DNA of 64,000 nt, from NCBI GenBank assembly GCA_035279385.1, contig DATEHZ010000061.1:4310-68309 (forward strand). Reading direction: 5' to 3'. Shown here in pieces: positions 33,288-56,400 of this stretch (its first letter is position 1; each line of letters starts with the position of its first letter). Below the pieces are notes generated by a model. That model saw only the letters and a program-made list of their open reading frames with translations. It was not told where the DNA came from and did not search any database. Both the position numbers and the translations under genes were made by a program. Source of the DNA: Vulcanimicrobiaceae bacterium. Its GTDB lineage: Bacteria > Vulcanimicrobiota > Vulcanimicrobiia > Vulcanimicrobiales > Vulcanimicrobiaceae.

Positions 33288-33648
33288 AATCGCGGAGTAC
33301 GCCTGTAAGCCGGATTCTGTTCCCCTCGCAAAGCTCGGGGCGGCGGCCATCTCTCTGGGACGCGCGTTGCCGTGCGTCTCGATGCGACTTTGCTCGTTCG
33401 GACGGGCAGTCCGGCCTCTTACGAGGCGTATCGAGCGGTCTTGCTTCAGGTGGGGTTTACCCGAGCGCACGTCACCGTGCGGCTCCGTGAGCTCTTACCT
33501 CACGATTTCACCCTTGCCTTGCGGCGGTATGTTTCTGTGGCACTTTCCTTCGGGTCGCCCCGACAGGACGTTATCCTGCACCCTGCCCTGTGAAGCCCGG
33601 ACTTTCCTCAAGCACGTTGCCTGCGGCCGTCCGGCGTACTCCGCGGTC
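33288..33648 (-). ncRNA. rnpB: RNase P RNA, bacterial type A
   Basis: The reverse complement contains GAGGAAAGTCCGGGCTTCACAGGGCAGGGTGC, AAGGGTGAAA, GGTAAGAGCTCAC, GGTAAACCCCACC and ACAGAATCCGGCTTA. 13-bp P1 between 33291-33303 and 33633-33645. Confidence 0.85.
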
Positions 33649-33670
33649 GTTTAGTGTATCACATCAAAGA

Positions 33671-33704
33671 AACGGCCGCGTGCGAAACGCGGCCGTTCGT
33701 TTTT
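33671..33704. terminator. Hairpin terminator, probably the original terminator of tRNA-Ala(GGC)
   Basis: 10-bp stem AACGGCCGCG-tgcgaaa-CGCGGCCGTT with T tracts on both strands. Confidence 0.65.
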
Positions 33705-33710
33705 AAATTC

Positions 33711-33730
33711 TGGAGGCAAGGAGACTCGAA
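33711..33730 (-). repeat. Displaced 20-nt copy of the tRNA-Ala(GGC) 3' end (att-like direct repeat, distal copy)
   Basis: TGGAGGCAAGGAGACTCGAA is identical to 36250-36269 inside the tRNA. Confidence 0.75.
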
Positions 33731-33863
33731 AACGTCTCGGTGCAGTCCTCGCGGGTTTTTAGCGGTCGCTGGCGCGGTTGCCTTCCGGTAAAGCGGCCGT
33801 CGAAGGCCAGGGACGGACGCGATGAGCCAGATCGAATGTCCTCGAATAGCCCGCTAAGAATCG

Positions 33864-34922
33864 CTACAGCGAATTGAAGATGAAGGTGGTCCGACGTAGG
33901 TGGTTCAGCGCCAGCATCGGTACTTTGTCCTCGGCGAGTTCGAGGAACTCGCGAACGAGAAAGTATTCAACGGTGCGCTCCCGCTGCATCTCGATCCAAT
34001 AGTCTGGTGAATATCGTGCGGCGACGCTGATCGCGTACATGACCGCGAGGTAGATAGCGTATTCGCTAATCGCCGTCTGTTTTATTGTTGGAAGAAAGAA
34101 CCGGCGGCCGTCGTGAACGATCGTGGTTGCGAGAAGCTCGTCTTCCGGTGAGCGGACAGACCCGTTGACCGAAGCTCGATCCCACGTAATGCGGTTATCG
34201 ACGAAGATGGCGTCGGAACCGCCTTGCTCGATCAGGTACGCCCCAACGGCGATATTGTCGCGGATCCAACCGGGCCCGCTTGGCACGTGATCTTGGATGT
34301 CGACCTCGATGTTTGGAAACGAACGCAGGGCCTCGTCGAGATAATCGTCGCCCGGAACGTCGCCGGTCCAAACGGCCTCAATCACTCGGGGCCGTAGGCG
34401 CGCGTGCGGAAGTGAATGACGGAGTTCAGGGATTGCTTCGAGGAAGTCGCGCACCTGGAATGTTTGTCCCGAGAGGGACGCACCCCCGAACGCGGCGTTG
34501 ATTGTACCGAAGGCTTGTGTACCTCGCCCCGTGTTAATCCGCGCCTCTAAGAGCGGCGAACTGCTGCGGAATTCAAAGGCAACTTCAAGACCATGCGCGG
34601 CCTCGCGCTTCGAAAGTTGCTCGCCGCTCAGCGTAGTGAAGGCGACCGCGTTGCCAAGCCACAGCGTTCCATAGTACAGGAGAACCGCGGCCGTAAAATC
34701 GTCATCGACGTCCTCCCACGCCTTCACGTTGTCGTCGGCCAGCGTGACGGCGTTGAGGAACGGTTTCAAAAACTTCGCATCGGCGTGTGGCTCGCGAAAC
34801 AATACCTCGGCGGCGTCGCGGCCCGCGAAGCGGGAGAGTTCGTGCCAAAGCGCGGAATGCGGCGCGCGACTGCGACGCTCATCGAGCGGCCAAACTTCAC
34901 GTAACCGATTGAGACTGTTCAT
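33864..34922 (-). CDS. YaaC-like family protein (uncertain)
   Basis: 352 aa. N-terminal LLYYGTLWLGNAV and C-terminal EYAIYLAVMYAISVAARYSPDYWIEM resemble my recollection of B. subtilis YaaC (LLFYGMVQLMKA.. / HYLLLYNLSMISRYETEWWNEL). Confidence 0.5.
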   Translation of the reverse strand: MNSLNRLREVWPLDERRSRAPHSALWHELSRFAGRDAAEVLFREPHADAKFLKPFLNAVTLADDNVKAWEDVDDDFTAAVLLYYGTLWLGNAVAFTTLSGEQLSKREAAHGLEVAFEFRSSSPLLEARINTGRGTQAFGTINAAFGGASLSGQTFQVRDFLEAIPELRHSLPHARLRPRVIEAVWTGDVPGDDYLDEALRSFPNIEVDIQDHVPSGPGWIRDNIAVGAYLIEQGGSDAIFVDNRITWDRASVNGSVRSPEDELLATTIVHDGRRFFLPTIKQTAISEYAIYLAVMYAISVAARYSPDYWIEMQRERTVEYFLVREFLELAEDKVPMLALNHLRRTTFIFNSL

Positions 34923-34985
34923 GTTCTGCGTCTCCAGCGGTCAGGCGCGATACAGAGCGGCCCTCCCCGATTAGGCGTGATTTGG

Positions 34986-36089
34986 TTATCTCGTTCTTGC
35001 ACTTGCTGATACAATGCCAAACCCGGTTCGTAATGACATGATTATGCCCATCACGAGACAAGTGCCCAGCAATATGAGCATTAACATTCCGCTTGGCGCT
35101 GATAGTAGCCGAAACGTAAGGATCAGGATTATTAGGCGAACCAGGTCTCGGTGCCAATCTGCAGAGTAATGGGTCAGCACTTTCTGGACCTCGACTTGTC
35201 GCCCGTACTCACGGTGAATGGATTCAAGCGACGTTTGTATGTGGCGCCCCGATTTGAGGATTTCAGCGCTCTCCGAATGCACCCGTTCCTGGGCCGCTTT
35301 TACCTTTGCAATAATCTCGTCTTTTGCGTGCCGCCGAGGCGACTCGGACGAGGACTCGTCGCTGTCAAGCTTTGCTATCGCCTCAACAAACGCAACGGCC
35401 GTGGCGCGCGTTGCTCGCTTGCGTTTCGAGGGCGATAACCGCTCATAATCAGCGAGGACTTCATTCGCGGCTTCGATGATCTCACGGCGCTTGGTCATGT
35501 CCGCTGTTTGTGCGCTGAACTGGTTTACGGCGGCGTCAAGATCGCGGTTTAGCGTTTGCTGCTCACTCGCAATGACTGGTTGCAGCCAATTGCGATACAC
35601 GGACAGGGAAACGCTTATCACAAGCAGGATCGTTGCAAAATATGCTACGGCTTTCGCCGGCAGGCCGGGAATGAGGAGCATCAGGCTGCCAAGCATAGTA
35701 GTTTGAAAGCAAACGGCGATCATTTCCGAGTTTGCCAGCAGCCAGTATAGCGAGCGCGACGAGAAATAAGCCCCGAAGGAGATGCCTTCAACTGGTGGGC
35801 CTGCTAGCGACAGCATCCCGGCGCTTAAGGTTAACACGGCAAAAACTATGACCCATAGCGTTGCTGAGACCGTCGCAAGCGATATTAATAGATCGTGTAT
35901 TAGTGCGGCGTCTATGACGCCGGACTTTGTTGTGAATCCGGAAAGGAACGAAAAAACCGCGGTATGCGGTATCGTCGTGTAGTGCGTAATAACGAGCGGA
36001 ACCACCCAAAACGCTAGAAGCCAGATTAGCGGCCACGGTACCGAGATCGGTTCTTTAACGTCCGTCGACGCTTCGTCCCTGACGCTCAT
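34986..36089 (-). CDS. Multi-pass membrane protein with a central coiled-coil domain
   Basis: About 5-6 N-terminal TMs, about 130 aa of charged helical region (NRDLDAAVNQF...KVKAAQERV), two C-terminal TMs. Low GC. Confidence 0.6.
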   Translation of the reverse strand: MSVRDEASTDVKEPISVPWPLIWLLAFWVVPLVITHYTTIPHTAVFSFLSGFTTKSGVIDAALIHDLLISLATVSATLWVIVFAVLTLSAGMLSLAGPPVEGISFGAYFSSRSLYWLLANSEMIAVCFQTTMLGSLMLLIPGLPAKAVAYFATILLVISVSLSVYRNWLQPVIASEQQTLNRDLDAAVNQFSAQTADMTKRREIIEAANEVLADYERLSPSKRKRATRATAVAFVEAIAKLDSDESSSESPRRHAKDEIIAKVKAAQERVHSESAEILKSGRHIQTSLESIHREYGRQVEVQKVLTHYSADWHRDLVRLIILILTFRLLSAPSGMLMLILLGTCLVMGIIMSLRTGFGIVSASARTR

Positions 36090-36246
36090 GCTTTACATTC
36101 CGGCAGTACGAACACCTTAGTGGCGCTCTTTCTTCCAGACACATAGCGTGCCCTAGCATGGCGGCTCAGCGGCTCCCCGCCGTTGCCTGCGGCAACGAAA
36201 TGGCAAACGATCCCCCGGGGAAGACCGAGGGATCGTGCTTGGAAAC

Positions 36247-36322
36247 TGGTGGAGGCAAGGAGACTCGAACTCCTGACCCTTACGCTGCCAGCGTAATGCT
36301 CTACCAACTGAGCTATGCCCCC
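36247..36322 (-). tRNA. tRNA-Ala(GGC), CCA encoded
   Basis: Reverse complement GGGGGCATAGCTCAGTTGGTAGAGC..TTACG-CTGGCAG-CGTAA.., G3:U70, ends ..TGCCTCCACCA. Confidence 0.9.
36250..36269 (-). repeat. Proximal copy of the 20-bp att-like repeat (inside tRNA-Ala)
   Basis: Identical to 33711-33730. Confidence 0.75.
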
Positions 36323-36362
36323 GAAGCGACCCGCAAAGATTCCCGGCGGGTCGTGAACATCC

Positions 36363-37531: not shown

Positions 37532-37822
37532 TTAGATCATCGCAATGTATTTTTTAAGGGCGGCATCGTCTTCTTTGAGCTGCTCGAGCATCATGTCGCG
37601 CAGCACGTTTGCTTCGCGCTCCAGCTCCGAACGCTCTTCCATTTCTTCATCGAATTGCGACTGCTGCGCCGTAACGGCATCGCTCTTCGGCGTCTTGGCA
37701 GCGCGCGTCGTCCCACGCGCTGCCACGGCTGCACGATCGATCACTCGGTGATCGACTCGATGAACTTCTTGGTGATTTGATTGTCGGCTTTGCGCTGCCA
37801 CAAAGCAAGGCAGGATAACCAC
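37532..37822 (-). CDS. Small hypothetical protein (start uncertain; possibly GTG at 37744)
   Basis: The C-terminal 60-70 aa are clean and helical (..EEMEERSELEREANVLRDMMLEQLKEDDAALKKYIAMI). The N-terminal third looks non-coding. Confidence 0.4.
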   Translation of the reverse strand: MVILPCFVAAQSRQSNHQEVHRVDHRVIDRAAVAARGTTRAAKTPKSDAVTAQQSQFDEEMEERSELEREANVLRDMMLEQLKEDDAALKKYIAMI

Positions 37823-37847
37823 AACATTATCGGTAACTTGCTCAACA

Positions 37848-39266
37848 ATGGCCGATAAATGTTGGCTTTACCTCGTTGTATCATCCGAAGCGCAGGAAGA
37901 CACGCTGGACGCGCAACGACGATGGGGGTTCGAGGAGGCCGCCCGTATCGGTGTGCGCGTTGATCCGGACGGCGTCTTTGAAGGAGTCGCCTCCGGCAAG
38001 CACGGCGCCCGAACGATCTTACTCGACCTGATCGCGAGGTTGCGCGCGCTCCCGAAGTCTGAGCGCCCGGCGCGTGTGCTGATGAATCGCCTGGACCGGA
38101 CGGGTCGCATGCCGCTAGACGCGATTTCTGCGCTGAACGACATTCGCAAACTCGGAGTCACAATCCGCGATCGGATTAACGGTGATTATACGTTTCAGCG
38201 CGTGATCGACCAAGTTGGGCCTATCTTCCAGCTGCTGCAGGCAGGGTTCGAAAACGAAGTTCGTTCCGATCGGTCGAGAGCCGGCCACAAACGCCGTCGC
38301 GACGAGGGAAAATTGATTCCGAGTAAACCGCCGTACGGCGTGAAGCGTGATGAACGCGGCAAAGCGATTCCGGATCCGAAATGCGCACGCGTTGTTCGAA
38401 AAGTCTTTGAGCGTTGGGCTGACGGCGATTCGCCTGCGGCGATCCTGCGATGGCTGCGCGAAAAGGCTCCGCCGCGCATCGGTCGCGGTGGCAAAGAGTA
38501 CCACATTCGGTGGAGCCTGTCCCATGTCTACAAAATGGTCGTGCTGGGCACTTACCGCGGCGTGGTAATCGACGAAGATCTCTGGCAGCGCGCTCAAAGT
38601 AGAAAGCGCAAGTACAGCCGTCCCGGGCCAGGCGGATACGTTTATCCATTTTCTGGCATTAAATGCACGTGCGGGCACACGCTGCGGGCCCGAACGAACG
38701 TATCGGCGTCACGCTATCGCCGAAGGGACGGCTCGGAAGTCATCTACACCCGCAGTCCAATCGTGTGGTACGTCTGCGGATCGCTGAAGCACGACGGCGT
38801 GAGGTATCTCTCTTTTCGTGAGGAGCGCATCGAAGAGCAGTGGCTAAAGATGCTGCGAATACTTTCATTGAAAAATGCTCCGTGGCCGACTTCGCAGCGT
38901 GCAACGAACCTGGGTCCGCGCATTGAAATGCTGACGCGCAGGCTCGATGTGCTCTTGGCACGACGTGATCGCGTCCATGCGGCTTTTGAAGATGGTACCT
39001 ACGATACGAAAACTATGCAGCGCCGACTCGCGGCCATCGACGAAGAGGAACGCAAACTGGAGGCCGACATCGCGGCGATACAGGCGCAGTATGAACGTGA
39101 ACGACAACGGCTCATTGATCGCGATCGCGCCGTGGCGTTGATAAAAAACGCTGCGAAGACGTACGCGAAGGCCACTCGCGAGGAACGTGCCCGGCTAAAC
39201 GCGGCTCTGTTCGCAGCGCTCGGACATCCCGTCATCACTGACGCATATCGCTTGACGCTGCCCTAA
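37848..39266 (+). CDS. Large serine recombinase (integrase)
   Basis: Resolvase catalytic domain (YLVVSSEAQ..LDRTGR), recombinase domain, Cys-rich zinc ribbon, C-terminal coiled coil. 472 aa. Confidence 0.85.
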   Translation: MADKCWLYLVVSSEAQEDTLDAQRRWGFEEAARIGVRVDPDGVFEGVASGKHGARTILLDLIARLRALPKSERPARVLMNRLDRTGRMPLDAISALNDIRKLGVTIRDRINGDYTFQRVIDQVGPIFQLLQAGFENEVRSDRSRAGHKRRRDEGKLIPSKPPYGVKRDERGKAIPDPKCARVVRKVFERWADGDSPAAILRWLREKAPPRIGRGGKEYHIRWSLSHVYKMVVLGTYRGVVIDEDLWQRAQSRKRKYSRPGPGGYVYPFSGIKCTCGHTLRARTNVSASRYRRRDGSEVIYTRSPIVWYVCGSLKHDGVRYLSFREERIEEQWLKMLRILSLKNAPWPTSQRATNLGPRIEMLTRRLDVLLARRDRVHAAFEDGTYDTKTMQRRLAAIDEEERKLEADIAAIQAQYERERQRLIDRDRAVALIKNAAKTYAKATREERARLNAALFAALGHPVITDAYRLTLP

Positions 39267-39275
39267 AGAGCAGAT

Positions 39276-39683
39276 TTAGAGGCTACGCTCCTCCGTCACG
39301 TTGATTGCGCGACCGTTGAGCGGTAAGTCCGATGCGGCGATGTACACGTTAAAGCGCTTGAAATACTGGAAGAATTCGCGGATTCCAATTTCAAAATGGA
39401 TGGCGCGGACCGGCGCCGGGTGGTGTGTGTTAAGAAAGTCTTTGGCTTGCTCATAGTTCGCGACCGGGATGACGTAGGCCGTGACTGACGCTGACGTTAC
39501 CGGTTCATCGAAGCGGCCGTTCTCGCCGTTGAACATACTGATTCCGATCAGAGACTCATCGTCTCGCAGGGCCCGCTTGTCGCGAAGATAGCGCTCGATC
39601 GATGGCAGCGGATGGTCGATGTTATCCGCTTCGACGGACCCTACCCACTCGCCGTACTGCACGCTGGCAACGAATTTCTTCAT
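39276..39683 (-). CDS. Hypothetical protein
   Basis: 135-aa ORF with lower GC, convergent with the recombinase. No family recognised. Confidence 0.5.
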   Translation of the reverse strand: MKKFVASVQYGEWVGSVEADNIDHPLPSIERYLRDKRALRDDESLIGISMFNGENGRFDEPVTSASVTAYVIPVANYEQAKDFLNTHHPAPVRAIHFEIGIREFFQYFKRFNVYIAASDLPLNGRAINVTEERSL

Positions 39684-39814
39684 GGTGCGGCCGTTATGCG
39701 GTTGGGTAAGCCGATTCCCGCCTCCATCGCGCGAAGCCGGATTCGGCGTAAGAATAGCGCTTTTCTAAACGCGATGCGGACTACGGCATAAGTATTAAGG
39801 TTTCGCGATTATCA

Positions 39815-39899
39815 AACGTATGTTTCATGCAGCGAAGGATCGAACGTATGTATCAGAGAGAATTTCGTTTGTTTAGCCAATCTATTGCGACAACGTATG
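39815..39899. promoter_or_regulatory. Three direct repeats AACGTATG(T/C) in the divergent control region
   Basis: AACGTATGTTTCA (39815), AACGTATGTATCA (39843) and AACGTATGCTCGA (39892) inside a 380-nt AT-richer intergenic region. Confidence 0.35.
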
Positions 39900-40063
39900 C
39901 TCGACAGCAAGCCGCCTGCGGATGTCATCGAACTTCCCGTGAGTCCCGAAACCACCAGGGTCGTACAGATCCTCGATGAGATCGAGCGTCGTTGTGCCGC
40001 GGAATCGTGCAATACACCAGAGGCTGCGTGACTGACGGCAACGCTGCCCAGCGGGAATCCCGA

Positions 40064-40813
40064 ATGGGCAATTACCGTGAGGTCGAGGTCACCGAGACAC
40101 CAGCAGCGCGCGCCGCTCGCCTCTCGAAGACCGCTGAAAATGTTGCGCCCATCAATGAAGAGATCGGAGTTGATGCGCGCCTAATCCAAGAACGAGGCGG
40201 CGCCGACCCGGAGGAGCGTGCCGACGAATCCGCGACGCAAGCGATGCGCGGTCCGACGCGCGGTAAAGGGGGAAGATCTCGCACCGGTCGACATCCTAAG
40301 CAGAAAAGAGGAACATGGACCTGCCCGGCATGCCACGTTGAATACTGCACGCATCGTCCGGTTGATGCGGGCAGGCCCTCAATCTATGACGAGCCGATGG
40401 CTCCAAATCCGTTCAAACCACGCATATTTAAGACGGAGGCGGAGTACTTTCGCTCTTCGGTAGACGTGACACTACTGTTGCGCGACGTTGTCAACATCAT
40501 GCGCGCTTACTTCGAACGCAACGGGATCGATCCCATTAAAGAGTTGCGTGAACGCGCACTGGAGCATTACCGCGGCGGCGGTCCAGCAACGATTGACGTG
40601 GAAATGCGCGTGGAAATTGCCGAGCGATGGCCCAAAGCGCTGCTCGAATGGTGGCGCAGCACGCGCACCGCGATCGGCGTCAATGATGCTGTGTTGTGCC
40701 GGGAACTAGTCGCAGATTTTTCGTGGCTGGCGCTCACGGATCCCGCGGTTTCAGAGCGCGCGCTTCGCGCCCTGGAGGATGCGGCGGAGAAGTTGCGTCG
40801 GATTACTGCTTGA
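40064..40813 (+). CDS. Hypothetical protein with CxxC..C..H knuckle
   Basis: Internal ATG chosen (MGNYREVEV..). WTCPACHVEYCTH. No family recognised. Confidence 0.5.
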   Translation: MGNYREVEVTETPAARAARLSKTAENVAPINEEIGVDARLIQERGGADPEERADESATQAMRGPTRGKGGRSRTGRHPKQKRGTWTCPACHVEYCTHRPVDAGRPSIYDEPMAPNPFKPRIFKTEAEYFRSSVDVTLLLRDVVNIMRAYFERNGIDPIKELRERALEHYRGGGPATIDVEMRVEIAERWPKALLEWWRSTRTAIGVNDAVLCRELVADFSWLALTDPAVSERALRALEDAAEKLRRITA

Positions 40814-40847
40814 TTTTGCAATACCAATAATGCTATATTCGCAAGAC

Positions 40848-40877
40848 GACGCCGCTGACAAACGGCGTCTTATTTTT
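40848..40877 (+). terminator. Rho-independent terminator
   Basis: Stem GACGCCG/CGGCGTC followed by ttattttt. Confidence 0.6.
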
Positions 40878-40902
40878 GTTGCGCAGTTGGGGAAGTTAAA
40901 GG

Positions 40903-41097
40903 ATGACGGACAACAACCGAATTCGCGCGGTGCGCGAGCGCCGCGGCCTGACGCAAAGCCAACTCGGCGAACTTATTGGAAAGTCGCAGCCTGAGGTGTC
41001 AAGGCTCGAGATTCCGTCCGTCGCGCCGCGGCCAAAGACGCTCCGCAAAATTGCTGCAGCGCTGGACGTAAGCCCGCACGACCTACTCGTCGCCTAA
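40903..41097 (+). CDS. XRE/Cro-CI family HTH regulator
   Basis: IRAVRERRGLTQSQLGELIGKSQPEVSRLE, a canonical HTH_XRE. 64 aa. Confidence 0.8.
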   Translation: MTDNNRIRAVRERRGLTQSQLGELIGKSQPEVSRLEIPSVAPRPKTLRKIAAALDVSPHDLLVA

Positions 41098-41117
41098 CGC
41101 GTAGATAAAAAAAACGA

Positions 41118-41145
41118 GCGCCGGCGGCAACCGGCGCGATTTCTT
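41118..41145. terminator. Hairpin with flanking A and T tracts
   Basis: aaaaaaaa-cga-GCGCCGG-cggcaa-CCGGCGC-gatttctt. Confidence 0.5.
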
Positions 41146-41156
41146 GAGGCATTTCG

Positions 41157-41996
41157 ATGGTATCAGAAGACGACGCGTCACGCAACATCGCGGAGCGCGA
41201 CGAACGAAGGTGGTACGAAAAATCCCAAGCGGCGCTTCCCATTCTCGCCGGTTTACCAGCCTGCGCGTACGCTGTGTTTTATTGCATCCTCGGCCACGTT
41301 AAACCGGGCACCAACACGTGGTCAATGTCATACGCCGAGGTTGAGCGTGAGACGAAGATATCGCGAAGCAGCGTTGTTCGAGGCGTGCGTGAGCTCCGGC
41401 AGTCCATGCTTCTGCACACGGCTCAGCAGAAGCGTGAGCGCACCATTTTCACCTTGCATATTCCCGAACCGGTGTCAGGATTGACTGGTGTCGGGGTTGA
41501 GCATGATTACGGTGTCAGTGTTGAGCACGGTTCCGGTGTCAGGGTTGACGCATCACTGGTGTCAGCGCACGAAGAGCCTCCCAGCACACCCGATCCCAAT
41601 TCCCAACACGTCCCAGCAGCAGCCGCGCGCGTAAGTGAATCGGACCTAAAAGAAGCGTGGTCCAAGGAATCACCTTCGGCATATCCGGGCGTACGCACGT
41701 GGTCCGCATTCGTCGCGAAGAAAATTGAAAAAGGCGAAATGCCGGCGAAACGTTCAAATGACTCCCACGCAGTTTTATCGGGCACATGTGAGTGTTGCGG
41801 TAACCGAAAAACGGGGCGGCGCGTAGAGCCGTCGTTCGAGGATCTGATGCAGAGAGGCGACGTACTGCCCTGTGATCGGCCGTTCTTTTGCTTCGGCTGC
41901 TTAGAATTGTCGCAGCACGAACGGGACCGCCTGACACGCGAAAGGCGCGAGAAAGAGCAACAATGCGAATGGCAGACGGAGGACTATGCGGCATGA
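41157..41996 (+). CDS. Winged-helix DNA-binding, replication-initiator-like protein (uncertain)
   Basis: ISRSSVVRGVRELRQSMLL resembles the wHTH of phage/plasmid Rep/O-type proteins. Iteron-like repeats lie inside the gene. C-terminal Cys cluster. Confidence 0.45.
   Translation: MVSEDDASRNIAERDERRWYEKSQAALPILAGLPACAYAVFYCILGHVKPGTNTWSMSYAEVERETKISRSSVVRGVRELRQSMLLHTAQQKRERTIFTLHIPEPVSGLTGVGVEHDYGVSVEHGSGVRVDASLVSAHEEPPSTPDPNSQHVPAAAARVSESDLKEAWSKESPSAYPGVRTWSAFVAKKIEKGEMPAKRSNDSHAVLSGTCECCGNRKTGRRVEPSFEDLMQRGDVLPCDRPFFCFGCLELSQHERDRLTRERREKEQQCEWQTEDYAA
41471..41565 (+). repeat. Five iteron-like direct repeats GGTGTCRGKGTTGAS
   Basis: Copies start at 41471, 41487, 41511, 41535 and 41558 (the last is partial). 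Confidence 0.6.
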
Positions 41997-42181
41997 CAAT
42001 GGACGGACTGGCTGCAGCAGCACGTCGTCACGGCGCGGCGTTCAAATATCGCGAGGACGGCACTATCGTCACGATCGGGCTCGAGCGGCTCCCCGCCGAT
42101 TTGCGCCAGCAGGTCCTTCTTCGGATCGACGACGTGCGGCGCAGCGTCGCGCGGAGTCGAGAGGCACACGTAGCAAAATGA
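41993..42181 (+). CDS. Hypothetical small protein
   Basis: ATGA overlap with the upstream stop. 62 aa. Confidence 0.45.
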   Translation: MTMDGLAAAARRHGAAFKYREDGTIVTIGLERLPADLRQQVLLRIDDVRRSVARSREAHVAK

Positions 42182-42705
42182 GCACTCCAATAGCCCCAAA
42201 TGGCGGAAAAACGGCAGTTCGTTTTCGCGGCTCACGCGCAGAAAAGCCCGATGATACGGACGATCCCGAGGGTTCGTTTTTCCAAAACGACCGCGGGCAC
42301 CATAACGAGAAGTCCAGAACCCGTGCCGATGTGGCGCTCACGTCCGCTGAAGCGGTCTCAATGCTTGCGGGTGAAGTTGGCTTCGACGCGGAGATGGCCA
42401 AGCTGCAAGAGATGATGCGCCAGTCGACGCGCAAAATGCTCGATGAGGCGCGTTCAACGCGCGCGAAAACCGATGTGCTGACGTACTGTTTGGCGCTTCG
42501 TACCGCACTTGCGTTCGGCCAGGGCTTCTGTGCTCGCGAACTCGATGAGGACGAGACAGAGCGGATACATGAGCGATTAACGCTGAGGGCGGCGCGTGCC
42601 GTGCTGGCCAACGTCGAAAAGGCGGTTGAGCGCCAGATGTGGTTCACCGCGTACGATGCCTTGAACGCGTTTTTGATATCGGCGCTATCGTCTGGAGGGC
42701 GATGA
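42178..42705 (+). CDS. Hypothetical protein
   Basis: ATGA overlap with the upstream stop. 175 aa. Confidence 0.5.
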   Translation: MSTPIAPNGGKTAVRFRGSRAEKPDDTDDPEGSFFQNDRGHHNEKSRTRADVALTSAEAVSMLAGEVGFDAEMAKLQEMMRQSTRKMLDEARSTRAKTDVLTYCLALRTALAFGQGFCARELDEDETERIHERLTLRAARAVLANVEKAVERQMWFTAYDALNAFLISALSSGGR

Positions 42706-43607
42706 TGGGCGAGGTTATTGCGCTCGGCGAGCGCTGTCGAGGCGGACCGCGAACGGACGCTGGTAAGCGCCGATCCAGCCGCAACGCGATGAAGACCGGG
42801 GTGTTCGCTGAGGCCATCGTCATTCGTGGCGTCGAATCGCAAGACGCGTTTGATACCTTGGTCAAGTCCGTCGTCGGTTTTCATGACATCGAAGATCCCG
42901 TGACGCTGCTCGCTGCTGAAAGGTTTATTGCGATCGCATGGCGCCTGCGCCGCGTGCGTCGTATTGAAACTGAGAAACTGACGGAAAAGGGCCGGCAGTA
43001 CGTGGCCGCCTCTGAGGATTTGCAAGCACGACATCGATTTCTTGAAATACTCAATGGTTACCGGCGAGCCGTCTCGGACGTCTCATCGGTCGGTACACTG
43101 GAAATCGAAACGATCGACAATGCTGTCAACGGCGTGCAGTACGTCCTGCATTACGTTCTCGGGCTAATCGACTGGAAAGCGAACTGCGTTGAAGGACAAG
43201 TTTGCTTCGAGGCGCCCCGGCTAGAGCGTATCTTAGATCGCGGGAAGCGGGTCCGCGGGAAAACCGCCCGTGCGGCTTTTGACGATGCGCGCCTGCTCCT
43301 CCCCGACGTGTTCGACAAGCAGAAAAATGTCGAAGAATTCCTGTGGAGGATGTACCGCGCACTCGATGAGATAGTCGACGCGCAGCGCTCAGAAATAGAC
43401 GAACACGAACGCAAAGCTCTTCGCGCGTTCGTCGATGCGATGGAACTTGACTGGCAGGACGAGCGGTCGCTAAGCAACGCAGAGCGACGCCTGGACGCGC
43501 AATTCAGTCGCGCGCTGGCAGACTTTCACGCCGCCCGCCGAGCCGTCGCCGAAGACGCGGCTGATGTGCATGCGAAACGACGCGGCGCTCAGGTGGCGAA
43601 TCAGTAA
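42702..43607 (+). CDS. Hypothetical protein
   Basis: ATGA overlap with the upstream stop. 301 aa, helical. Confidence 0.5.
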   Translation: MMGEVIALGERCRGGPRTDAGKRRSSRNAMKTGVFAEAIVIRGVESQDAFDTLVKSVVGFHDIEDPVTLLAAERFIAIAWRLRRVRRIETEKLTEKGRQYVAASEDLQARHRFLEILNGYRRAVSDVSSVGTLEIETIDNAVNGVQYVLHYVLGLIDWKANCVEGQVCFEAPRLERILDRGKRVRGKTARAAFDDARLLLPDVFDKQKNVEEFLWRMYRALDEIVDAQRSEIDEHERKALRAFVDAMELDWQDERSLSNAERRLDAQFSRALADFHAARRAVAEDAADVHAKRRGAQVANQ

Positions 43608-43624
43608 GAACGGAGGTGTTTTCA

Positions 43625-43792
43625 GTGGGACAACTCGTCAAAGGGCTTCGTCCGGGAACCATGATTCACACGACCGCGGGAACCTTCCGCAACGGCAGCG
43701 AGCCGACGAAAGAGCAAGCCGACGCGCTGAAAAAGCAAGGTTACACGCTGGAGGAGAGCCCCGAAACGCTCGCTCCCGCTTGGGGTCGCTGA
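43625..43792 (+). CDS. Hypothetical small protein (below the ORF-track cutoff)
   Basis: GTG start 8 nt after GGAGGT. 55 aa, MGQLVKGLRPGTMIHTTAG... Confidence 0.4.
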   Translation: MGQLVKGLRPGTMIHTTAGTFRNGSEPTKEQADALKKQGYTLEESPETLAPAWGR

Positions 43793-43822
43793 CCCGGTTT
43801 TTACCTGAGCGAAGAACGATTC

Positions 43823-43856
43823 GCCGACGCATCTTGCGCCGGCAATTTTTATTTTA
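43823..43856 (+). terminator. Intra-operon terminator/attenuator
   Basis: Stem GCCGACGC/GCGCCGGC (one mismatch) followed by aatttttatttt. Confidence 0.5.
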
Positions 43857-43869
43857 CGAAAGAGGTGCC

Positions 43870-44061
43870 ATGTCAAACGAATTGAGCGATGCGCTCGACG
43901 ACATCACGCGTCGCCACTCCGCAGCCGAACACAGCGTTGTGCCCGCGGCCGCATATGGTGAGCGTCGCGATTCTGCCGTATCGCCGGACCATTACAAAAC
44001 CGGAGTCGAGACGGATGGGACATCCGAAGGTGCCGCAGCCCCGGAAGAAGGCGCCCAATGA
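43870..44061 (+). CDS. Hypothetical small protein
   Basis: SD AGAGG upstream. 63 aa. Its stop overlaps the next ATG. Confidence 0.4.
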   Translation: MSNELSDALDDITRRHSAAEHSVVPAAAYGERRDSAVSPDHYKTGVETDGTSEGAAAPEEGAQ

Positions 44062-44621
44062 AGAAAACCGCCGAAAGAGACCTGACAGCCGCGGATGTGC
44101 GCGCGCGTTTGGACGATGCCCGCGGCGAACTTGCCCAAGCGCGGGAGGATCTACCGAAGGCGCAGCGCGCAGCGGCGCGAGCGTATCTCATGCGCCAGCC
44201 GTACGATGATGCTGTGTCTGCGCGTTTCAACATCGCGCGCCTCGAAGACATAATTACCGGTTTGCAGTTGCTGCTACCGGTTGCGGAGCATCGCGATCGT
44301 TGCGTGGAGATCACCGAGTTGGAGCGTGAGAAATCGGCGTTGCAGCCGCGCATCGACACGCTCGACCGTCGTTATCGCGAGCTCATCGCCCAAACCCGCG
44401 ACCTGCCCGATCCAATGGCATCGTTTCTGGGTTCGCCGGCGCCGCACCCAAAGGTCGTGGAAAAAAATCGGGTCGGAGCGGAGCTGCGTTCACTCGAAAG
44501 CAGCCGCGATGGTATCGACTTCAGCATCGCGGCCGCAAAACAGCGCTGTGCGGATCTGGAGCGTGCCCATCCGGACGCGATCACGGAGGGCTGCGACGGC
44601 TCGAAGCGCGCAGCCGCCTAA
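44058..44621 (+). CDS. Coiled-coil hypothetical protein
   Basis: 187 aa with heptad-like charged helices. Confidence 0.5.
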   Translation: MKKTAERDLTAADVRARLDDARGELAQAREDLPKAQRAAARAYLMRQPYDDAVSARFNIARLEDIITGLQLLLPVAEHRDRCVEITELEREKSALQPRIDTLDRRYRELIAQTRDLPDPMASFLGSPAPHPKVVEKNRVGAELRSLESSRDGIDFSIAAAKQRCADLERAHPDAITEGCDGSKRAAA

Positions 44622-44766
44622 AACCTATCGCGGCAGCACTCCGCCGCGTGCGTGGTCACGTCTGCTACGGCGGGCGGACCACGAATCGTGGCCGGCGGGC
44701 TTGAATCACCCGCTGGTCCGTCCGGCCGTCGCTTTGGGGTCCATGCGGCGGCCGGGCACTTCATTA

Positions 44767-44787
44767 CCGGTAACTCTCGATTATCGA
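44767..44787. promoter_or_regulatory. Operator-like palindrome CCGGTAA-N7-TTATCGA
   Basis: Matches the 48070 and 51402 sites. Lies 28 nt upstream of the J-domain gene start. Confidence 0.4.
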
Positions 44788-44814
44788 CAATGCTCCGTTA
44801 GTGGAGGTGACACC

Positions 44815-45465
44815 TTGAGTGCTGCGCCGCAAGCATTTCCGCTTCAGTGGCCTGCCGGCAAACCGCGAACGCCGGCGCAGAAGCGCGAGCGCGCAAAATT
44901 CGGCAAGAAGGGCCGCGGCTGGACATCGGATCCCATCACCGGCGGCAATCGGTACGAGGGCGCAAAGTCACTGACGGTCGCCGATGCGGTCGCGCGCGTG
45001 CAGGGAGAACTCAGGCGCTTAGGCGCAACGCACCCCGTCATTTCGACGAACATCGAACTGCGGCGTGATGGTCTGCCGTACTCGAAGCAGCCGCGACTCG
45101 ACGACGATCCTGGCGCCGCGGTGTACTTTCAGCTCAAGGGCAAGCCGATCGTGCTCGCCTGCGACCACTACGACCGCGTCGCGGACAACGCCGCTGCGAT
45201 CGCTGCGCACGTCGACGCGATGCGTGCGATTGAACGGCACGGCGTCGGCTCGCTTGAGCAAATGTTCGCCGGGTTCGCTGCGCTACCGCCGATATCGCCA
45301 GATGATTGGCGCGAGCCGCTCGGGCATCCGTCCACGCTGGACGAGGCAGAGCGTAATTATCGAGAGCGCATGAAGTACGCGCATCCAGACGTGGGCGGTA
45401 ACGAAGCCGTCGCCGCGAGACTTAACGCAGCAATCGCGAAAGCGCGCGAAGAGCTCGCTGCATAA
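44815..45465 (+). CDS. J-domain (DnaJ-like) phage-type protein
   Basis: TTG start 6 nt after GGAGGTG. C-terminal J domain ..YRERMKYAHPDVGG.. (HPD motif). Confidence 0.7.
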   Translation: MSAAPQAFPLQWPAGKPRTPAQKRERAKFGKKGRGWTSDPITGGNRYEGAKSLTVADAVARVQGELRRLGATHPVISTNIELRRDGLPYSKQPRLDDDPGAAVYFQLKGKPIVLACDHYDRVADNAAAIAAHVDAMRAIERHGVGSLEQMFAGFAALPPISPDDWREPLGHPSTLDEAERNYRERMKYAHPDVGGNEAVAARLNAAIAKAREELAA

Positions 45466-45510
45466 TCATGCTACCGACTCAAAGTATGGTGCTACGGAGA
45501 TTGATAAGTA

Positions 45511-45750
45511 TTACAGCGATGCGTGGTGCTTTGGTACTGCAGAGAGACGCCAGATGATAGGCTTAGCGGTGCTATGCGTGTGGTGGTCTTGTGGTGGCAG
45601 TGAACGGTCCTTTTCGCACGCCGCTTCCCACCCACAGTTGATGCACCGGTAGATCCCGGGCTCCGGCGGTTTTTTACCAGGTGTATACGTCTTGTCGAAC
45701 GCCGCATGGGTCTTCTGCGTGAATTCGGCCTGTCGCTGATAGTACGGCAT
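45511..45750 (-). CDS. Small zinc-ribbon protein
   Basis: 79 aa, GIYRCINCGWEAAC. Confidence 0.5.
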   Translation of the reverse strand: MPYYQRQAEFTQKTHAAFDKTYTPGKKPPEPGIYRCINCGWEAACEKDRSLPPQDHHTHSTAKPIIWRLSAVPKHHASL

Positions 45751-45903
45751 ATTACGCCCCCGGCTGCGTTAAGAAAAAAAGGGATCTTCCACATTCAAAT
45801 CCGCTTCTTACAGCTCCCGCGTTGCCCGATGGTTCTTTAGTTTTATTTGATGCGTTGACACCAGAGCACCTTATACGACGTGCTTTTGTTTTTGGAAGGA
45901 AAA

Positions 45904-46122
45904 ATGATAAAAATCGTTTTTGCGGCAGCCTCCCTGCTTTCTGTCCTTATCACCGGGGCCGACCGCTGCGCGCCGGGCTCTTCCGCTAAGCCAGGCATAG
46001 TTTGCGTGGTCGGCGCTCTAAAAAAAGGCGGCGATATTCGAAATGTGTACGCTTCCGATGGTGCGCAACTGATCGTAGAGCAAACTGATGCTGCGTGCAT
46101 TCGGGATACGCACGCCAAATGA
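45904..46122 (+). CDS. Small secreted protein
   Basis: Internal ATG after GAAGGA. Signal-like MIKIVFAAASLLSVLITGA. Confidence 0.45.
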   Translation: MIKIVFAAASLLSVLITGADRCAPGSSAKPGIVCVVGALKKGGDIRNVYASDGAQLIVEQTDAACIRDTHAK

Positions 46123-46955
46123 GAAATGCAATTTTACGCGTCGCACTGGCAATTGCTGCTTTCGCGCTGCTTGGTGCATTCGCGAGCAATCAGCTGATGT
46201 CTAGAAACGACGTTTATGCTCAGATCGGCACCGCGTTCTCGTGGGCCGGCACGGCGCAAGCGTCATGGAACGGCGATCACACCATGGTGAACTGCTCCGA
46301 CTTCTTCACGTACATTAAGTCGGACGGTTCCAGTTGCACGACGTTGTACGGAACGAACGGCGCTCATCAGATCATGAATTGGTCGCAGATGCAGCAGCAC
46401 GCGGTCAACTCTACACCGGTTTCGCATACCCCGATCTTGTCGAACAATACCTTTGCCGGGGCCGTCTTCAGCCCGTGGACCGCCGACGGGTCGGCAACCT
46501 GTTCCGCGAACTTCGCCGCCTCGACGACCGATCAGGAAGGCACCGACGGCGGCAGTGCGACGGGCAATTCAAGCAACGGAACGTGCACCATTGGGATGAG
46601 CCAGACGTTCAACGTTACCGCTGCTCCGACGAGCCAATCGCTTTCGTTTTACTATGAGACTCCCAATGTATCCGCCGGCGACGGAATCAACTGCACGGCG
46701 GGAACGGGATCGGCAACAATCACGATCAAGCTCAACGGTACGACGATCTCTACCATTACCAACCCCACCTACGATTCGTCCTGGCACCCGGTGAGCACGC
46801 CCATCAGCGCCATGGTATCTGGAAGCAACACGCTGGATATTACGGTATCGCTCACGGCCGCTTCCGGAACGACCGGAAGCCCAGCGTGCACTACACATCA
46901 ATACGCCCAACAACACGTGTACATCGACAACGTTCAATTAACCGCGACGTACTAG
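46119..46955 (+). CDS. Secreted Ser/Thr/Asn-rich protein
   Basis: ATGA overlap. Signal peptide MRNAILRVALAIAAFALLGAFA. About 11 N-x-S/T sequons. Confidence 0.55.
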   Translation: MRNAILRVALAIAAFALLGAFASNQLMSRNDVYAQIGTAFSWAGTAQASWNGDHTMVNCSDFFTYIKSDGSSCTTLYGTNGAHQIMNWSQMQQHAVNSTPVSHTPILSNNTFAGAVFSPWTADGSATCSANFAASTTDQEGTDGGSATGNSSNGTCTIGMSQTFNVTAAPTSQSLSFYYETPNVSAGDGINCTAGTGSATITIKLNGTTISTITNPTYDSSWHPVSTPISAMVSGSNTLDITVSLTAASGTTGSPACTTHQYAQQHVYIDNVQLTATY

Positions 46956-47046
46956 CCTCGTGCGGCGCAATTTATACCTTTCGAATTTGCGAAAAATGGA
47001 AAAGGGACCGACTGCATCGATCCCCTTCGTCAGGTCACGGACGTGG

Positions 47047-47973
47047 CTAGTATGTAAATGCGCCGGCGGACGCGAGCATGTAACCGGCAAAGATGTCCTG
47101 GTTCGGATCGCTTGCCCCGAAGATCGCCCACTTGCCGATACGTCCATCATGCGTTTTGAAGCAGTACGTGTTCGGGCTCGATCCGTTGAACGTCGAGATA
47201 CTCACGCTGGTCGCAGCGCTGGGAATGGCTCCGCAGGCGCTCGTGGTCGTGACATTCATCAGCGCGTTGTAGCCGGCCGCGACCGCGCCATACGGAAAGA
47301 CGACTTGCGAAGGGCTGGTTGACGCATCGAGATAGACATCGGTATCCGCCTGCGTGTCGGCCTGCTCGCTCACGCCGTTCGCGTCGAACATCGCGCCCGT
47401 CAGGAAGTGGAACAAGTCCGTCGTGTCGAGCGACGATCGCAGCCCCATCCCGCGGTAGGTCAGTAGCGAGAGTTTTTGGGTGGTACCCAGTGACGTCATC
47501 GTGATCGTCGTTTGACCCGAGGTCGTCGGCAAGCCGACGACCTCGGCATTGAATACCTGCTGACAACTGCAGTTATTCAGCGGCCACGTCGGATACGTGG
47601 TCGGAATCGGCGCGGGGTTGCCGGTTTGACTCCATGTGACCGAGGGCAACGGGCTCGGGATCGCCGATCCGTCCGTCGTGTCGAGCACTGCCTGAGCCTC
47701 AACGCCGATCGTGTTCGGCGCGCCGCTGATATATGCGTCCGGAACGGCAAGTTGCTGTGTCGGGATGATTTGCCCGACGACGGTCGCCATCGGCGACGTC
47801 ATTACAGAGCGAAACAGGCTTTGCGGCGTTGAGCCGGAGGATCCGAACGTCGCGAGCACCTTGGCGGCTTTCGGTTGCATTGTCGGCAGTACGCTGGGCG
47901 AACCGCTGCCTCCGCCGCATCCGGCAAGCGCACAGGCGGAAACGGCGACGACGATGAGCGTGAAACGAATCAT
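47047..47973 (-). CDS. Lipoprotein, hypothetical
   Basis: Lipobox ALAGC followed by a Gly/Ser linker. 308 aa, Ser/Thr rich. Confidence 0.6.
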   Translation of the reverse strand: MIRFTLIVVAVSACALAGCGGGSGSPSVLPTMQPKAAKVLATFGSSGSTPQSLFRSVMTSPMATVVGQIIPTQQLAVPDAYISGAPNTIGVEAQAVLDTTDGSAIPSPLPSVTWSQTGNPAPIPTTYPTWPLNNCSCQQVFNAEVVGLPTTSGQTTITMTSLGTTQKLSLLTYRGMGLRSSLDTTDLFHFLTGAMFDANGVSEQADTQADTDVYLDASTSPSQVVFPYGAVAAGYNALMNVTTTSACGAIPSAATSVSISTFNGSSPNTYCFKTHDGRIGKWAIFGASDPNQDIFAGYMLASAGAFTY

Positions 47974-48069
47974 GTTGTGATTTATACCTCCGCGCCAATC
48001 TTACCAAAGGCGCTCGGCGGCCGCGTTGCCGATAACAATTCCACGCACAAAATTGCGCCGCACGCGCTA

Positions 48070-48090
48070 CCGATAATCAAACCTTATCGG
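48070..48090. promoter_or_regulatory. Perfect palindrome CCGATAA-N7-TTATCGG (operator-like)
   Basis: Intergenic, 44 nt upstream of ORF 48134. An extra half-site CCGATAA lies at 48029. Confidence 0.5.
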
Positions 48091-48133
48091 AACCAGCGAT
48101 GCGCAAAGTCAAGATAGCCGGGGGTTACGGAAG

Positions 48134-48550
48134 ATGACTGCTCACGTCGCGCGAGACAGCGCGCTGGTGGATGAGTCGATGCAAATGCAGACCGCCAGCA
48201 TTCATGCGGCAGAGCTGGCGAAATCGGCCTTTGAGGCCGCCAAGTATAGGGCGCTTGCGTTGACGTGGGCGCACACTATAGACCTGCTGGACACGTATCT
48301 TGCACCAGCGAACAGTCTTGAAGAGCTCCGCCGCGACATGCCGCTCCTCATCTGGGCGATACACACGTTGTGTAGCGCGATGCTGGACCAGACGCCCTCG
48401 CCTGAGCCGGTTGGAACGCATCCCGCGTTTGCCCGCATATCGAGGCGTGACGCGACGCGGATCCTGCGCGAGATGCGCGACGGCATCGTCGATGAGCGCT
48501 ATGAAAAACTGCGGCGCCGCTGCGCCAATCTACTTCCGGAGGTCGCGTAA
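48134..48550 (+). CDS. Hypothetical protein abutting the tape-measure-like gene
   Basis: 138 aa. Its TAA is immediately followed by the ATG of the next gene. Confidence 0.5.
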   Translation: MTAHVARDSALVDESMQMQTASIHAAELAKSAFEAAKYRALALTWAHTIDLLDTYLAPANSLEELRRDMPLLIWAIHTLCSAMLDQTPSPEPVGTHPAFARISRRDATRILREMRDGIVDERYEKLRRRCANLLPEVA

Positions 48551-50935: not shown

Positions 50936-51375
50936 TGCTGCCACGGCAACGCGCCGCACTTCGAAAGAAGAACCAGCACAATAACTAGCAGCGCAATCCA
51001 CAATAGCGCATAGATGACCTGCAAGGCGGCCTGCACGATGAGTGCGAGGTCGAGCAGCAATCCGCCGAGGCCGGCGAACAGCATGCGCCACGCTTGTCGC
51101 TTAGATAGTCTCGCCTGAGGCGGCGTCGTAATCACAGGCGCCCTGCGCGGTTCGAAAGCTGTGGGTTCCGGGTCGTGGATGCGAGCGCAAAACGGCGCGC
51201 TTTCATCCTCGGCTGCGCGGTTGGAGCGTGCGGCAAATTCGGACTCGATGTCCCAGGTATTGGGATCGGTATCACGGTCGGTTTCGGCTTGGTCCGCATC
51301 CTCGTCGTCTTCGTTATCGACGAACGGGGCGGCCCAGCCGCTGACCCCGCGCTTGCGGTTCATAGCTGAAAGCAT
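50932..51375 (-). CDS. Acidic protein with a C-terminal TM anchor, hypothetical
   Basis: 147 aa. D/E-rich N-terminus and a hydrophobic C-terminus. Confidence 0.4.
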   Translation of the reverse strand: MLSAMNRKRGVSGWAAPFVDNEDDEDADQAETDRDTDPNTWDIESEFAARSNRAAEDESAPFCARIHDPEPTAFEPRRAPVITTPPQARLSKRQAWRMLFAGLGGLLLDLALIVQAALQVIYALLWIALLVIVLVLLSKCGALPWQH

Positions 51376-51401
51376 AGTTCAGCCGAGTAGATGCCACACT
51401 G

Positions 51402-51422
51402 CCGATAACCGCAAATTATCGA
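51402..51422. promoter_or_regulatory. Palindrome CCGATAA-N7-TTATCGA (operator-like)
   Basis: Lies in the divergent intergenic region between 51375 (-) and 51627 (+). Confidence 0.45.
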
Positions 51423-51626
51423 GCGCCTCAATTCGCGGGTGCGGCAAAGGTTAATATTCTGTGATTTTCACCACGACCGACGGCGACGCAGTCATCAGCG
51501 GAGGAGGACGTACGGCTTTGGGGCGGAAGCGCGCTTCATGTCCGCTGCGCATAGAGGTGGGGCGCTTCCCCTTTTTTCCGAAACCCGGGCTTCGTCGTGC
51601 TCGTTATCGGGTAAGGAGATAGCAGA

Positions 51627-51887
51627 GTGACCATTATGTACGCACCGAGCCGGCGGGCCTTCAACCGTGACCGTCGTCCGGACAGCCCGCAGAAGATCGT
51701 CAACGATGCGGTGCGCAGCCTCCACGTGCGCTGCCTTGGCGTTGATGGAACACTTCTCATTTTTCAGCGCACAAACCGAGCTTCGCACGATCTCAACGCT
51801 CTAACGCAACAGATCGCCCAGCGGCTTCTTCAGAACGAAGATCTGCGTGAAGCGCTGAGCGGGATTACCGGCATAAGATTGCTGTAG
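51627..51887 (+). CDS. Hypothetical protein
   Basis: GTG start 9 nt after AAGGAG. 86 aa. Confidence 0.45.
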   Translation: MTIMYAPSRRAFNRDRRPDSPQKIVNDAVRSLHVRCLGVDGTLLIFQRTNRASHDLNALTQQIAQRLLQNEDLREALSGITGIRLL

Positions 51888-51912
51888 GCCGGCGCTGCGC
51901 GCCGTCGGGTGG

Positions 51913-52695
51913 GTGTGGTTCCTCGCGCTGGGGATTCCGGCCGTCGCTATCGGATTTGTGTCATGGCTATATGTCCACCAATGGTTGGCGCTTGCACATG
52001 GCTCAAGCGTAATACAGTGCGCGTTCGGCAATCCAGTTTGTAGCGTTGCGGTAGCGACATGGGCCTTGGTGCTGTTCACGATTTTTGCGTTTGCCGCTGC
52101 GGCGTCTGCGGCGATTTTCGCGAAGTGGGCGTTCAATAACGAGATCGAGCCGAGGCTAGGCGAGGATGCCTGCACGAATCGCCGTTGCACGCGACGCGAT
52201 CGCGTCTGGTACCTTTCTTCGGACATCGAATTTCTGCCTAAACGTCCGCTGGGCAGCACAGAGAAGCAGTATCGAAAAGTGCATCACGCTTTTACGAACC
52301 TAGGGCGCAACGCCCTGGGGAACGTCGTGGTCAAGGTCTGTTTTCTGGATAAGGACGGCTTTCCGTCCCCCGAATTTGACATGCCACTTGGAAACCTCGG
52401 TGTAGCGGACCTGCACCGCGAACGGCACGTCGAAATTCGTATCCACGAGGATCTTTACGACGATGGCGACGTCTTCATTCGATTTAATTCGGCGTCAGCC
52501 GACGGCAAAAAGATCAAGGCGTTCTTGAAGGTCGATCCCGAAGTGCCAACGGCGCAGAATCTGTTCATCCTGCCAAACTCCCAGCTATCCATGGGAGAGC
52601 TAATGCGCGAAGTGCGCCGAACCGAATTGAAACCTGGTCGTTCGAATCGCCGACGCGAAGCCGAGGCCGGACACGTGCAGGAAGACGACGAGTGA
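51913..52695 (+). CDS. Membrane protein with a cytoplasmic C-terminal domain, hypothetical
   Basis: 2-3 N-terminal TMs followed by a soluble domain of about 170 aa. Confidence 0.5.
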   Translation: MWFLALGIPAVAIGFVSWLYVHQWLALAHGSSVIQCAFGNPVCSVAVATWALVLFTIFAFAAAASAAIFAKWAFNNEIEPRLGEDACTNRRCTRRDRVWYLSSDIEFLPKRPLGSTEKQYRKVHHAFTNLGRNALGNVVVKVCFLDKDGFPSPEFDMPLGNLGVADLHRERHVEIRIHEDLYDDGDVFIRFNSASADGKKIKAFLKVDPEVPTAQNLFILPNSQLSMGELMREVRRTELKPGRSNRRREAEAGHVQEDDE

Positions 52696-52718
52696 TGCTC
52701 TTCCGCGATTAGCTGGCG

Positions 52719-56399: not shown

Positions 56400-56400
56400 G

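Follow-up and report, generated by a model that had tools for sequence, protein, structure and literature searches.

Genomic islands that tyrosine integrases have inserted into tRNA genes are catalogued by Islander (PMC4383910). Another class, the cis-mobilizable elements (CIMEs), comprises decayed elements derived from ICEs (integrative and conjugative elements) or IMEs (integrative mobilizable elements) that keep both attachment (att) sites, attL and attR, and lack genes for integration and transfer (PMC5704250; ICEberg 2.0, PMC6323972). The stretch of DNA analyzed here, referred to as the window, is 64 kb of contig DATEHZ010000061.1 (positions 4,310 to 68,309; assembly GCA_035279385.1) from a Vulcanimicrobiaceae bacterium, and it contains a 2.5-kb islet at the 3' end of a tRNA-Ala(GGC) gene. 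The same DNA forms part of the 88.6-kb ENA contig ERZ27257066:k141_1299827, whose proteins are listed at NCBI under 'Candidatus Baltobacteraceae bacterium' (Eremiobacterota). This islet is probably a decayed, integrase-less and CIME-like remnant of an IME- or ICE-type element that targets tRNA-Ala(GGC), because its cargo is tied to an element family and a series of integrase fragments is present at the same site in related genomes. To our knowledge, almost no mobile elements have been described from the host phylum, the little-studied Eremiobacterota.

Like the islands collected by Islander, the islet splits its target tRNA gene and regenerates it, and the displaced 3' fragment forms the direct repeat at its far end. 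Its DNA is also compositionally foreign, and empty sites are found in relatives. Unlike those islands, it lacks an internal integrase gene, is very small (2.5 kb, two genes) and is hosted by an uncultured Eremiobacterota (Baltobacteraceae) lineage. With CIMEs it shares the lack of integrase and mobilization genes and the att cores that bound it on both sides, and its same-site relatives include an element with both integrase and relaxase (locus L138) as well as decay intermediates with integrase fragments. It departs from them in that its right arm has lost a tandem motif, so that attR may be non-functional, and in that neither excision nor a partner for accretion was seen for it; the CIMEs described are, moreover, mostly from Firmicutes. 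A third comparison is with attP sites of the lambda type, in which arm-type integrase sites flank the core on both sides. Elements related to the islet have an 11-bp-spaced direct-repeat motif in both arms (candidate sites of this kind), and the N-terminal region of their integrases gives a weak Arm-DNA-binding match. However, the family has no phage-like traits: the 20-bp core has 0 matches in the viral contigs of IMG/VR, and a relaxase or a DUF3987 protein is carried instead.

The core sequence, TGGAGGCAAGGAGACTCGAA, occurs exactly twice in the window (Table 1), and no third match appears even when 3 mismatches are allowed, with 0 expected from 100 shuffles. In the orientation of the tRNA the repeat reads TTCGAGTCTCCTTGCCTCCA and extends from the T-loop to the discriminator of tRNA-Ala(GGC). 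The identity is exactly 20 bp, with different flanking bases at both sides; CCA follows the copy in the tRNA and GAA follows the distal copy, which lies 2,539 bp downstream, with 2,519 bp between the two copies. The initial annotation had described this perfect duplication and taken it for a product of site-specific integration at a tRNA 3' end, and both the copy number and the ARAGORN placement of the tRNA bear the duplication out. On the minus strand, the gene order is tRNA-Ile(GAT), orf244, tRNA-Ala(TGC), tRNA-Ala(GGC), the island, the distal 20-mer, a hairpin, rnpB and a gene for a GAF-domain membrane protein, with rnpB beginning about 28 nt past the hairpin. A TGnTAyAnT box is conserved 8-12 nt upstream of rnpB across Eremiobacterota relatives (about 40 loci), and this extended -10-like box is the putative rnpB promoter.

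Relatives were collected with a 20-mer scan of one genome per species, since a search of genome contigs with the neighboring GAF protein as query returned none. The scan gave 119 loci (loci are cited here by L numbers), mostly from Eremiobacterota (Vulcanimicrobiota) metagenome-assembled genomes (MAGs), on which rnpB was then mapped. Adjacency of tRNA-Ala(GGC) and rnpB is widespread in the phylum, with a gap of 33-180 nt in about 15 to 17 loci and of 0.8-5.7 kb in others. The nearest relatives by identity of orf244 are L134 (76%), L052 (73%) and L062 (71%); host genes on both sides of the site are syntenic, with orf244 71-76% identical and the GAF protein conserved. L062 and L132 both have an intact tRNA and, after it, a hairpin, then a TGnTAyACT box and then rnpB, which is the empty junction that the initial annotation had proposed to look for in related genomes. 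When the window's tRNA body is joined to the distal 20-mer and its flank, the rebuilt site aligns over its full length with both loci, as expected for integration at the tRNA end; a blastn alignment with L062 covers window positions 33730-33623 (121 nt, 73% identity).

Beyond the distal copy lies a hairpin with the core A[AT]GGCCGCG...CGCGGCC[AG]T; L052 and L134 have a homologous hairpin immediately after the intact tRNA (66 nt, about 80% identity), as does L062. The distal 20-mer and hairpin are therefore the original end and terminator of the tRNA, displaced by 2.5 kb, which agrees with how this hairpin had been annotated. The 73-nt body of the window's tRNA-Ala(GGC) is identical to the tRNA of L062, L052 and L134. 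The intact tRNA genes of L052, L134, L132 and L079 encode no CCA, whereas an encoded CCA is present in all island-type left ends; with GAA after the distal copy, this indicates that the present CCA arrived with the inserted DNA, a further point that had been suspected beforehand. The last 20 nt of the present tRNA would thus derive, together with CCA, from the island, and constitute its attL.

The enclosed DNA had been described as visibly AT-richer than its flanks, and its GC content is indeed 56.8% against 64.3% for the host part of the window. GC at third codon positions is 0.59 and 0.69 in the two island genes and 0.72-0.80 in host genes. Measured against the host profile, the tetranucleotide distance of the island (0.032) exceeds that of 2.5-kb host windows (0.017 +/- 0.0025, maximum 0.022) by about 6 standard deviations, and the island is the most compositionally deviant 2.5 kb of the window. 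The proposed check of composition against the flanks thus comes out clearly in favor of foreign DNA.

The left end of the islet belongs to a group of related sequences. The hairpin that follows the rebuilt tRNA is a predicted replacement terminator and part of a conserved left-end module, completed by the tandem repeat TTGCC-N6-TTGCC. This module recurs 49-53 nt after tRNA-Ala(GGC) in 13 related loci, and the sequence beyond it varies by locus. In the same orientation, TTGCC-N6-TTGCC also lies 73-158 nt upstream of seven of eight displaced partial copies of the 20-mer (L049, L066, L076, L078, L087, L103 and L112). It has 26 exact occurrences across the 874 kb that the loci span, and 20 of them fall no more than 260 nt from a core. 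Arm-type integrase sites are laid out in this way, as a tandem motif spaced by 11 bp on each arm of the att site, and TTGCC-N6-TTGCC is for this reason probably an arm-binding site of the integrase. The alternative that the motif and the sequence beyond it represent a C-terminal integrase remnant in the window was rejected, because a hidden Markov model (HMM) of the integrase family finds nothing there and because the motif is also present in right arms. In the window, both 20-bp cores are perfect, and the tandem motif that seven of the eight other right arms have is absent from the right arm.

One tyrosine integrase family adjoins the motif-bearing left ends. Full-length copies are found in L138 (403 aa), L061, L077 and L106 (394 aa), fragments of the C-terminal or an internal part in L066, L136, L050, L122, L124 and L107, and no copy in L035, L037, L069 and L130; the progression from full-length integrases through fragments to the integrase-free islet forms a decay series. 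Phage_integrase and SAM_3 domains are present in the family besides its weak Arm-DNA-binding match. It is accompanied by a Doc/Fic protein and a MobA/VirD2 relaxase in L138, and by an Mrr-type nuclease protein (Mrr_cat) and a DUF3987 protein in L077. By this gene content, the integrase-bearing elements at this tRNA look like integrative mobilizable or conjugative elements. The HMM has no match in a six-frame translation of positions 33651-36330, and tblastn with these integrases gives nothing meaningful across the whole window.

A close parallel is the 5.6-kb island at positions 1063-6764 of L066, which belongs to a complete Eremiobacterota chromosome (OY970243.1). It occupies the same tRNA-Ala(GGC)/rnpB site between the same exact 20-bp repeats, with rnpB 60 nt after the distal copy. 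Its GACGTT junction on the island side is shared with the window, and TTGCC-N6-TTGCC is present on both arms. Of the integrase it keeps only residues 217-378, and as cargo it carries genes for a DUF1254/DUF1214 protein and a sulfatase.

The 2,519 bp enclosed in the window contain two long minus-strand open reading frames (ORFs) and no recombinase domain, which upholds the initial count of two proteins and no recombinase. Among 5.8 billion proteins, the 367-aa protein has no more than two homologues. The gene for the closer one (in L140, 66% identity) lies at a distance of 2.9 kb from the gene of an integrase that shares 48% identity with the L138 integrase (E = 3e-100), and the cargo gene of the islet is therefore tied to that element family. 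The partner of the homologue in L140 is a Vpar_1526 protein; a relationship between it and the YaaC-family protein of the islet was considered and rejected (hhalign probability 0.1%), so there is no conserved two-gene module. Homologues of the YaaC protein are found next to an MmeI-type restriction-modification gene (L017), near genes for a MauJ protein and an nSTAND NTPase that adjoin prophage genes (L020), and among small unannotated ORFs. Judged by these neighbors, they occupy apparently mobile or defense-like contexts. An AlphaFold (AF2) model of the YaaC protein is confident, with a pLDDT (predicted local distance difference test) score of 80.5. Searches of the PDB by sequence and fold gave nothing significant for it; the best Foldseek match has E = 0.8, and matches to four-helix bundles have a probability of 0.5 or less. 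Neither cargo protein has a match in PADLOC, PHROGs or NCBIfam, and a literature search on YaaC found nothing relevant. A role in defense or abortive infection is plausible from context, since relatives carry Mrr, Doc and DUF6414 genes in the slot beside attL. In offsets downstream of the tRNA, this variable slot between attL and the integrase contains the Mrr_cat nuclease protein at 132-1814 in L077, a DUF6414-like gene at 308-1177 in L106 and the Doc/Fic toxin at 1565-1951 in L138.

Table 1. Features of the islet, its attachment site and the neighboring insertion (positions in the window)
Feature	Position	Strand	Basis or remark
rnpB (RNase P RNA, bacterial type A), host neighbor of the attachment site	33290..33642	-	RNaseP_bact_a, 249 bits
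Extended -10-like box of rnpB, TGATACACT, undamaged by the insertion	33653..33661	-	Conserved across relatives
Native terminator hairpin of tRNA-Ala(GGC)	33670..33698	-	-22.3 kcal/mol, z = -3.9; homologous hairpin after intact tRNA in L052, L134, L062
attR core, displaced native tRNA 3' end, followed by GAA	33711..33730	-	Contiguous with host sequence as in empty sites of relatives
Right arm of the island	33731..33863	-	No tandem TTGCC motif; only one GGCAA, inverted, at about 50 nt from the core
Cargo gene 2, 352-aa YaaC-family protein	33864..34922	-	Pfam PF14175, E = 1e-20
Cargo gene 1, 367-aa predicted membrane/coiled-coil protein, no known family	34986..36089	-	ORF
Candidate pair of integrase arm-type sites, P' arm, TTGCCATTTCGTTGCC (TTGCC-N6-TTGCC)	36191..36206	-	No second exact occurrence in the window
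Island-borne hairpin directly after the rebuilt tRNA	36207..36236	-	Inverted repeat; -24.4 kcal/mol, z = -2.6; aligns with hairpins in 13 other loci
attL core, proximal 20-bp direct-repeat copy (T-loop to discriminator)	36250..36269	-	Exact repeat
tRNA-Ala(GGC), intact, CCA encoded	36247..36322	-	ARAGORN and Rfam
Large serine recombinase	37848-39266		Left end of the 19.4-kb insertion, 1.5 kb from the islet
Tape-measure-like 794-aa protein	48551-50935		In the 19.4-kb insertion
Xer-like tyrosine recombinase	55419-56441		Near the right end of the 19.4-kb insertion, 19 kb from the islet
Junction attB, GGGTCAGGAG-TTCGAGTCTCCTTGCCTCCA-GAATTTAAAAACGAACGG			Synthetic, reconstructed for read mapping
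Junction attP, CACCGAGACGTT-TTCGAGTCTCCTTGCCTCCA-CCAGTTTCCAAGCACG			Synthetic, reconstructed for read mapping

The sequence of events can be set out as follows. A tyrosine integrase would have recombined the attP core of the incoming element, identical to the last 20 nt of tRNA-Ala(GGC), with the tRNA gene of the chromosome. The copy brought by the element rebuilt the tRNA and added CCA, a new hairpin terminator and the candidate arm sites TTGCC-N6-TTGCC, and the native 3' end was displaced 2.5 kb downstream. As that end is still joined to the native terminator and the putative rnpB promoter, the tRNA and rnpB are both intact. Later deletions probably removed the integrase, any mobilization genes and the sites of the far arm, leaving the genes for the membrane protein and the YaaC protein. 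Most likely, the islet is immobile at present; its excision would require, at the least, that a cognate integrase be supplied from another part of the genome.

Several observations weigh against decay as the explanation. No intact parent that combines both cargo genes with this integrase at tRNA-Ala(GGC) was found among the loci examined. The cores are perfect at 20 of 20 positions and show no decay, so the element could remain a substrate for recombination, and the window covers 64 kb of the genome, so a cognate integrase could lie elsewhere. The genomes with empty sites belong to different species or genera and not to the same population. The case for arm sites is one of position and spacing, and the motif is part of the integrase ORF in L138 and L061, so that its conservation could partly reflect coding.

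The initial annotation had offered a choice between a decayed island and a minimal cassette mobilized in trans, with a serine and a tyrosine recombinase nearby as possible mobilizers. The decayed island is favored here. It is unlikely that the islet is instead an active cassette, a CIME-like hitchhiker with usable attL and attR moved by an integrase of the L138/L106 type encoded elsewhere in the genome or by an adjacent incoming element. Such activity would fit the perfect cores, the left arm with its hairpin and TTGCC-N6-TTGCC module, and the documented existence of CIMEs as a class (PMC5704250), and the integrase-less or integrase-fragment versions common at this site would provide openings for mobilization in trans or in cis. 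However, the right arm lacks the motif found in nearly all its counterparts, the cognate integrase was not found in the window, and the seven independent metagenome assemblies with the island are all colinear with the occupied state. A search for an empty junction in Joint Genome Institute (JGI) metagenomes found no such contig, though it met no conspecific DNA. A bolder version is slightly less likely: the islet would be a still-functional, integrase-less minimal cassette that depends in trans or in cis on an undescribed family of tRNA-Ala(GGC)-specific IME integrases in Eremiobacterota, and the membrane protein and YaaC protein would together make up a novel anti-phage or abortive-infection system, encoded in the variable cargo slot beside attL.

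The nearby recombinases themselves are very improbable agents for the islet's insertion or movement, close as they are (1.5 kb and 19 kb), and this part of the initial proposal is not supported. Both belong to a different insertion of 19.4 kb, which L062, L052, L134 and L132 lack. The Xer-like protein has no similarity to the att-site integrase family (tblastn E > 1), and the 119 loci with the same att core contain no homologue of either recombinase. Large serine recombinases, for their part, act through a 2-bp crossover and leave no 20-bp tRNA duplication. The features of a large-serine-recombinase element are seen in the 19.4-kb insertion and not in the 2.5-kb islet. Equally improbable, and largely refuted, is an origin without site-specific recombination, in which the repeat would be a chance or dispersed one, would stem from target duplication by a transposon or would be left over from a local duplication of the tRNA, and the 2.5 kb would be ancestral. 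A partial tRNA duplication does exist at this locus in L088, but it is of another kind, with a repeat of about 55 nt and a separation of 206 nt. However, 0 chance matches are expected, empty sites occur in many lineages, the composition is foreign, and the left-end module is common to integrase-bearing islands. The island also has no terminal inverted repeats and no transposase, and its 20-bp repeat is a tRNA end rather than the mark of a transposon, insertion sequence or miniature inverted-repeat transposable element.

Read as a decayed remnant, the islet is ordinary in kind. It adds an example to a known class, leaves current understanding unchallenged, and provides a clean and fully bounded case of decay in a tRNA-targeting island. 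For Eremiobacterota, it helps to define an integration hot spot at tRNA-Ala(GGC), beside rnpB or purN, with a 20-bp core, a candidate arm motif and an integrase family, all three of which should be useful for annotating islands in MAGs of this phylum. The variable genes beside attL are candidates for defense functions.

The neighboring 19.4-kb insertion (37799-57221) is independent of the islet. Synteny with L062, L052, L134 and L132 jumps from window position 37798 to 57222, and the insertion splits a small host gene into a C-terminal part (37533-37798) and an N-terminal part (57222-57384). Its ends are the imperfect inverted repeats CACAAAGCAAG and GATAACCAC. In addition to the genes listed in Table 1, it holds a gene for a helix-turn-helix protein and many ORFans, and is likely a small or defective prophage-like element.

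At the population level, the islet is present at 100% identity in contigs of seven other sequencing runs, all colinear with the occupied state. The JGI metagenome scan for the host-side junction had 0 matches and met no conspecific DNA at all, which makes it uninformative on empty alleles. In Logan contigs of other runs the island is colinear, or the contigs break inside tRNAs or rnpB, so that empty alleles are neither shown nor excluded. In one Logan run (SRR26838002; L145 and L011), contigs end at window positions 36251 and 33735, 1-5 nt from the att cores. Chance or low coverage may explain these ends, or they may hint at heterogeneous junctions; they do not conform to a simple k = 31 branch model.

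Other variation is seen around the attachment site in relatives. Between the tRNA terminator and rnpB, L052 has a gene for a secreted lipoprotein-like protein of about 300 aa (positions 2748-3796), as do L134, L093, L111, L128, L084 and L023. There is no tRNA repeat with it, and it is absent from the window and present in the nearest Baltobacteraceae relative. In L076, L078, L112, L050, L054 and L137, purN (a GNAT-formyltransferase fusion) and purM take the place of rnpB after tRNA-Ala(GGC) or its displaced fragment, and partial tRNA copies followed by the native terminator at these purN-type loci suggest larger or tandem islands. The duplication in L088 (positions 1237-1515) consists of a truncated second tRNA copy of about 55 nt that is missing the D-arm and lies 150 nt after tRNA-Ala(GGC), followed by the native terminator and rnpB; this is another type of scar, with a longer repeat, at the locus that the islet occupies in the window. 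Elsewhere in the window, five tRNA genes (Ser-GCT, Arg-ACG, Met, Arg-CCG and Ser-CGA) are clustered within 2.6 kb, at positions 1692-4306, in a region of lower GC content.

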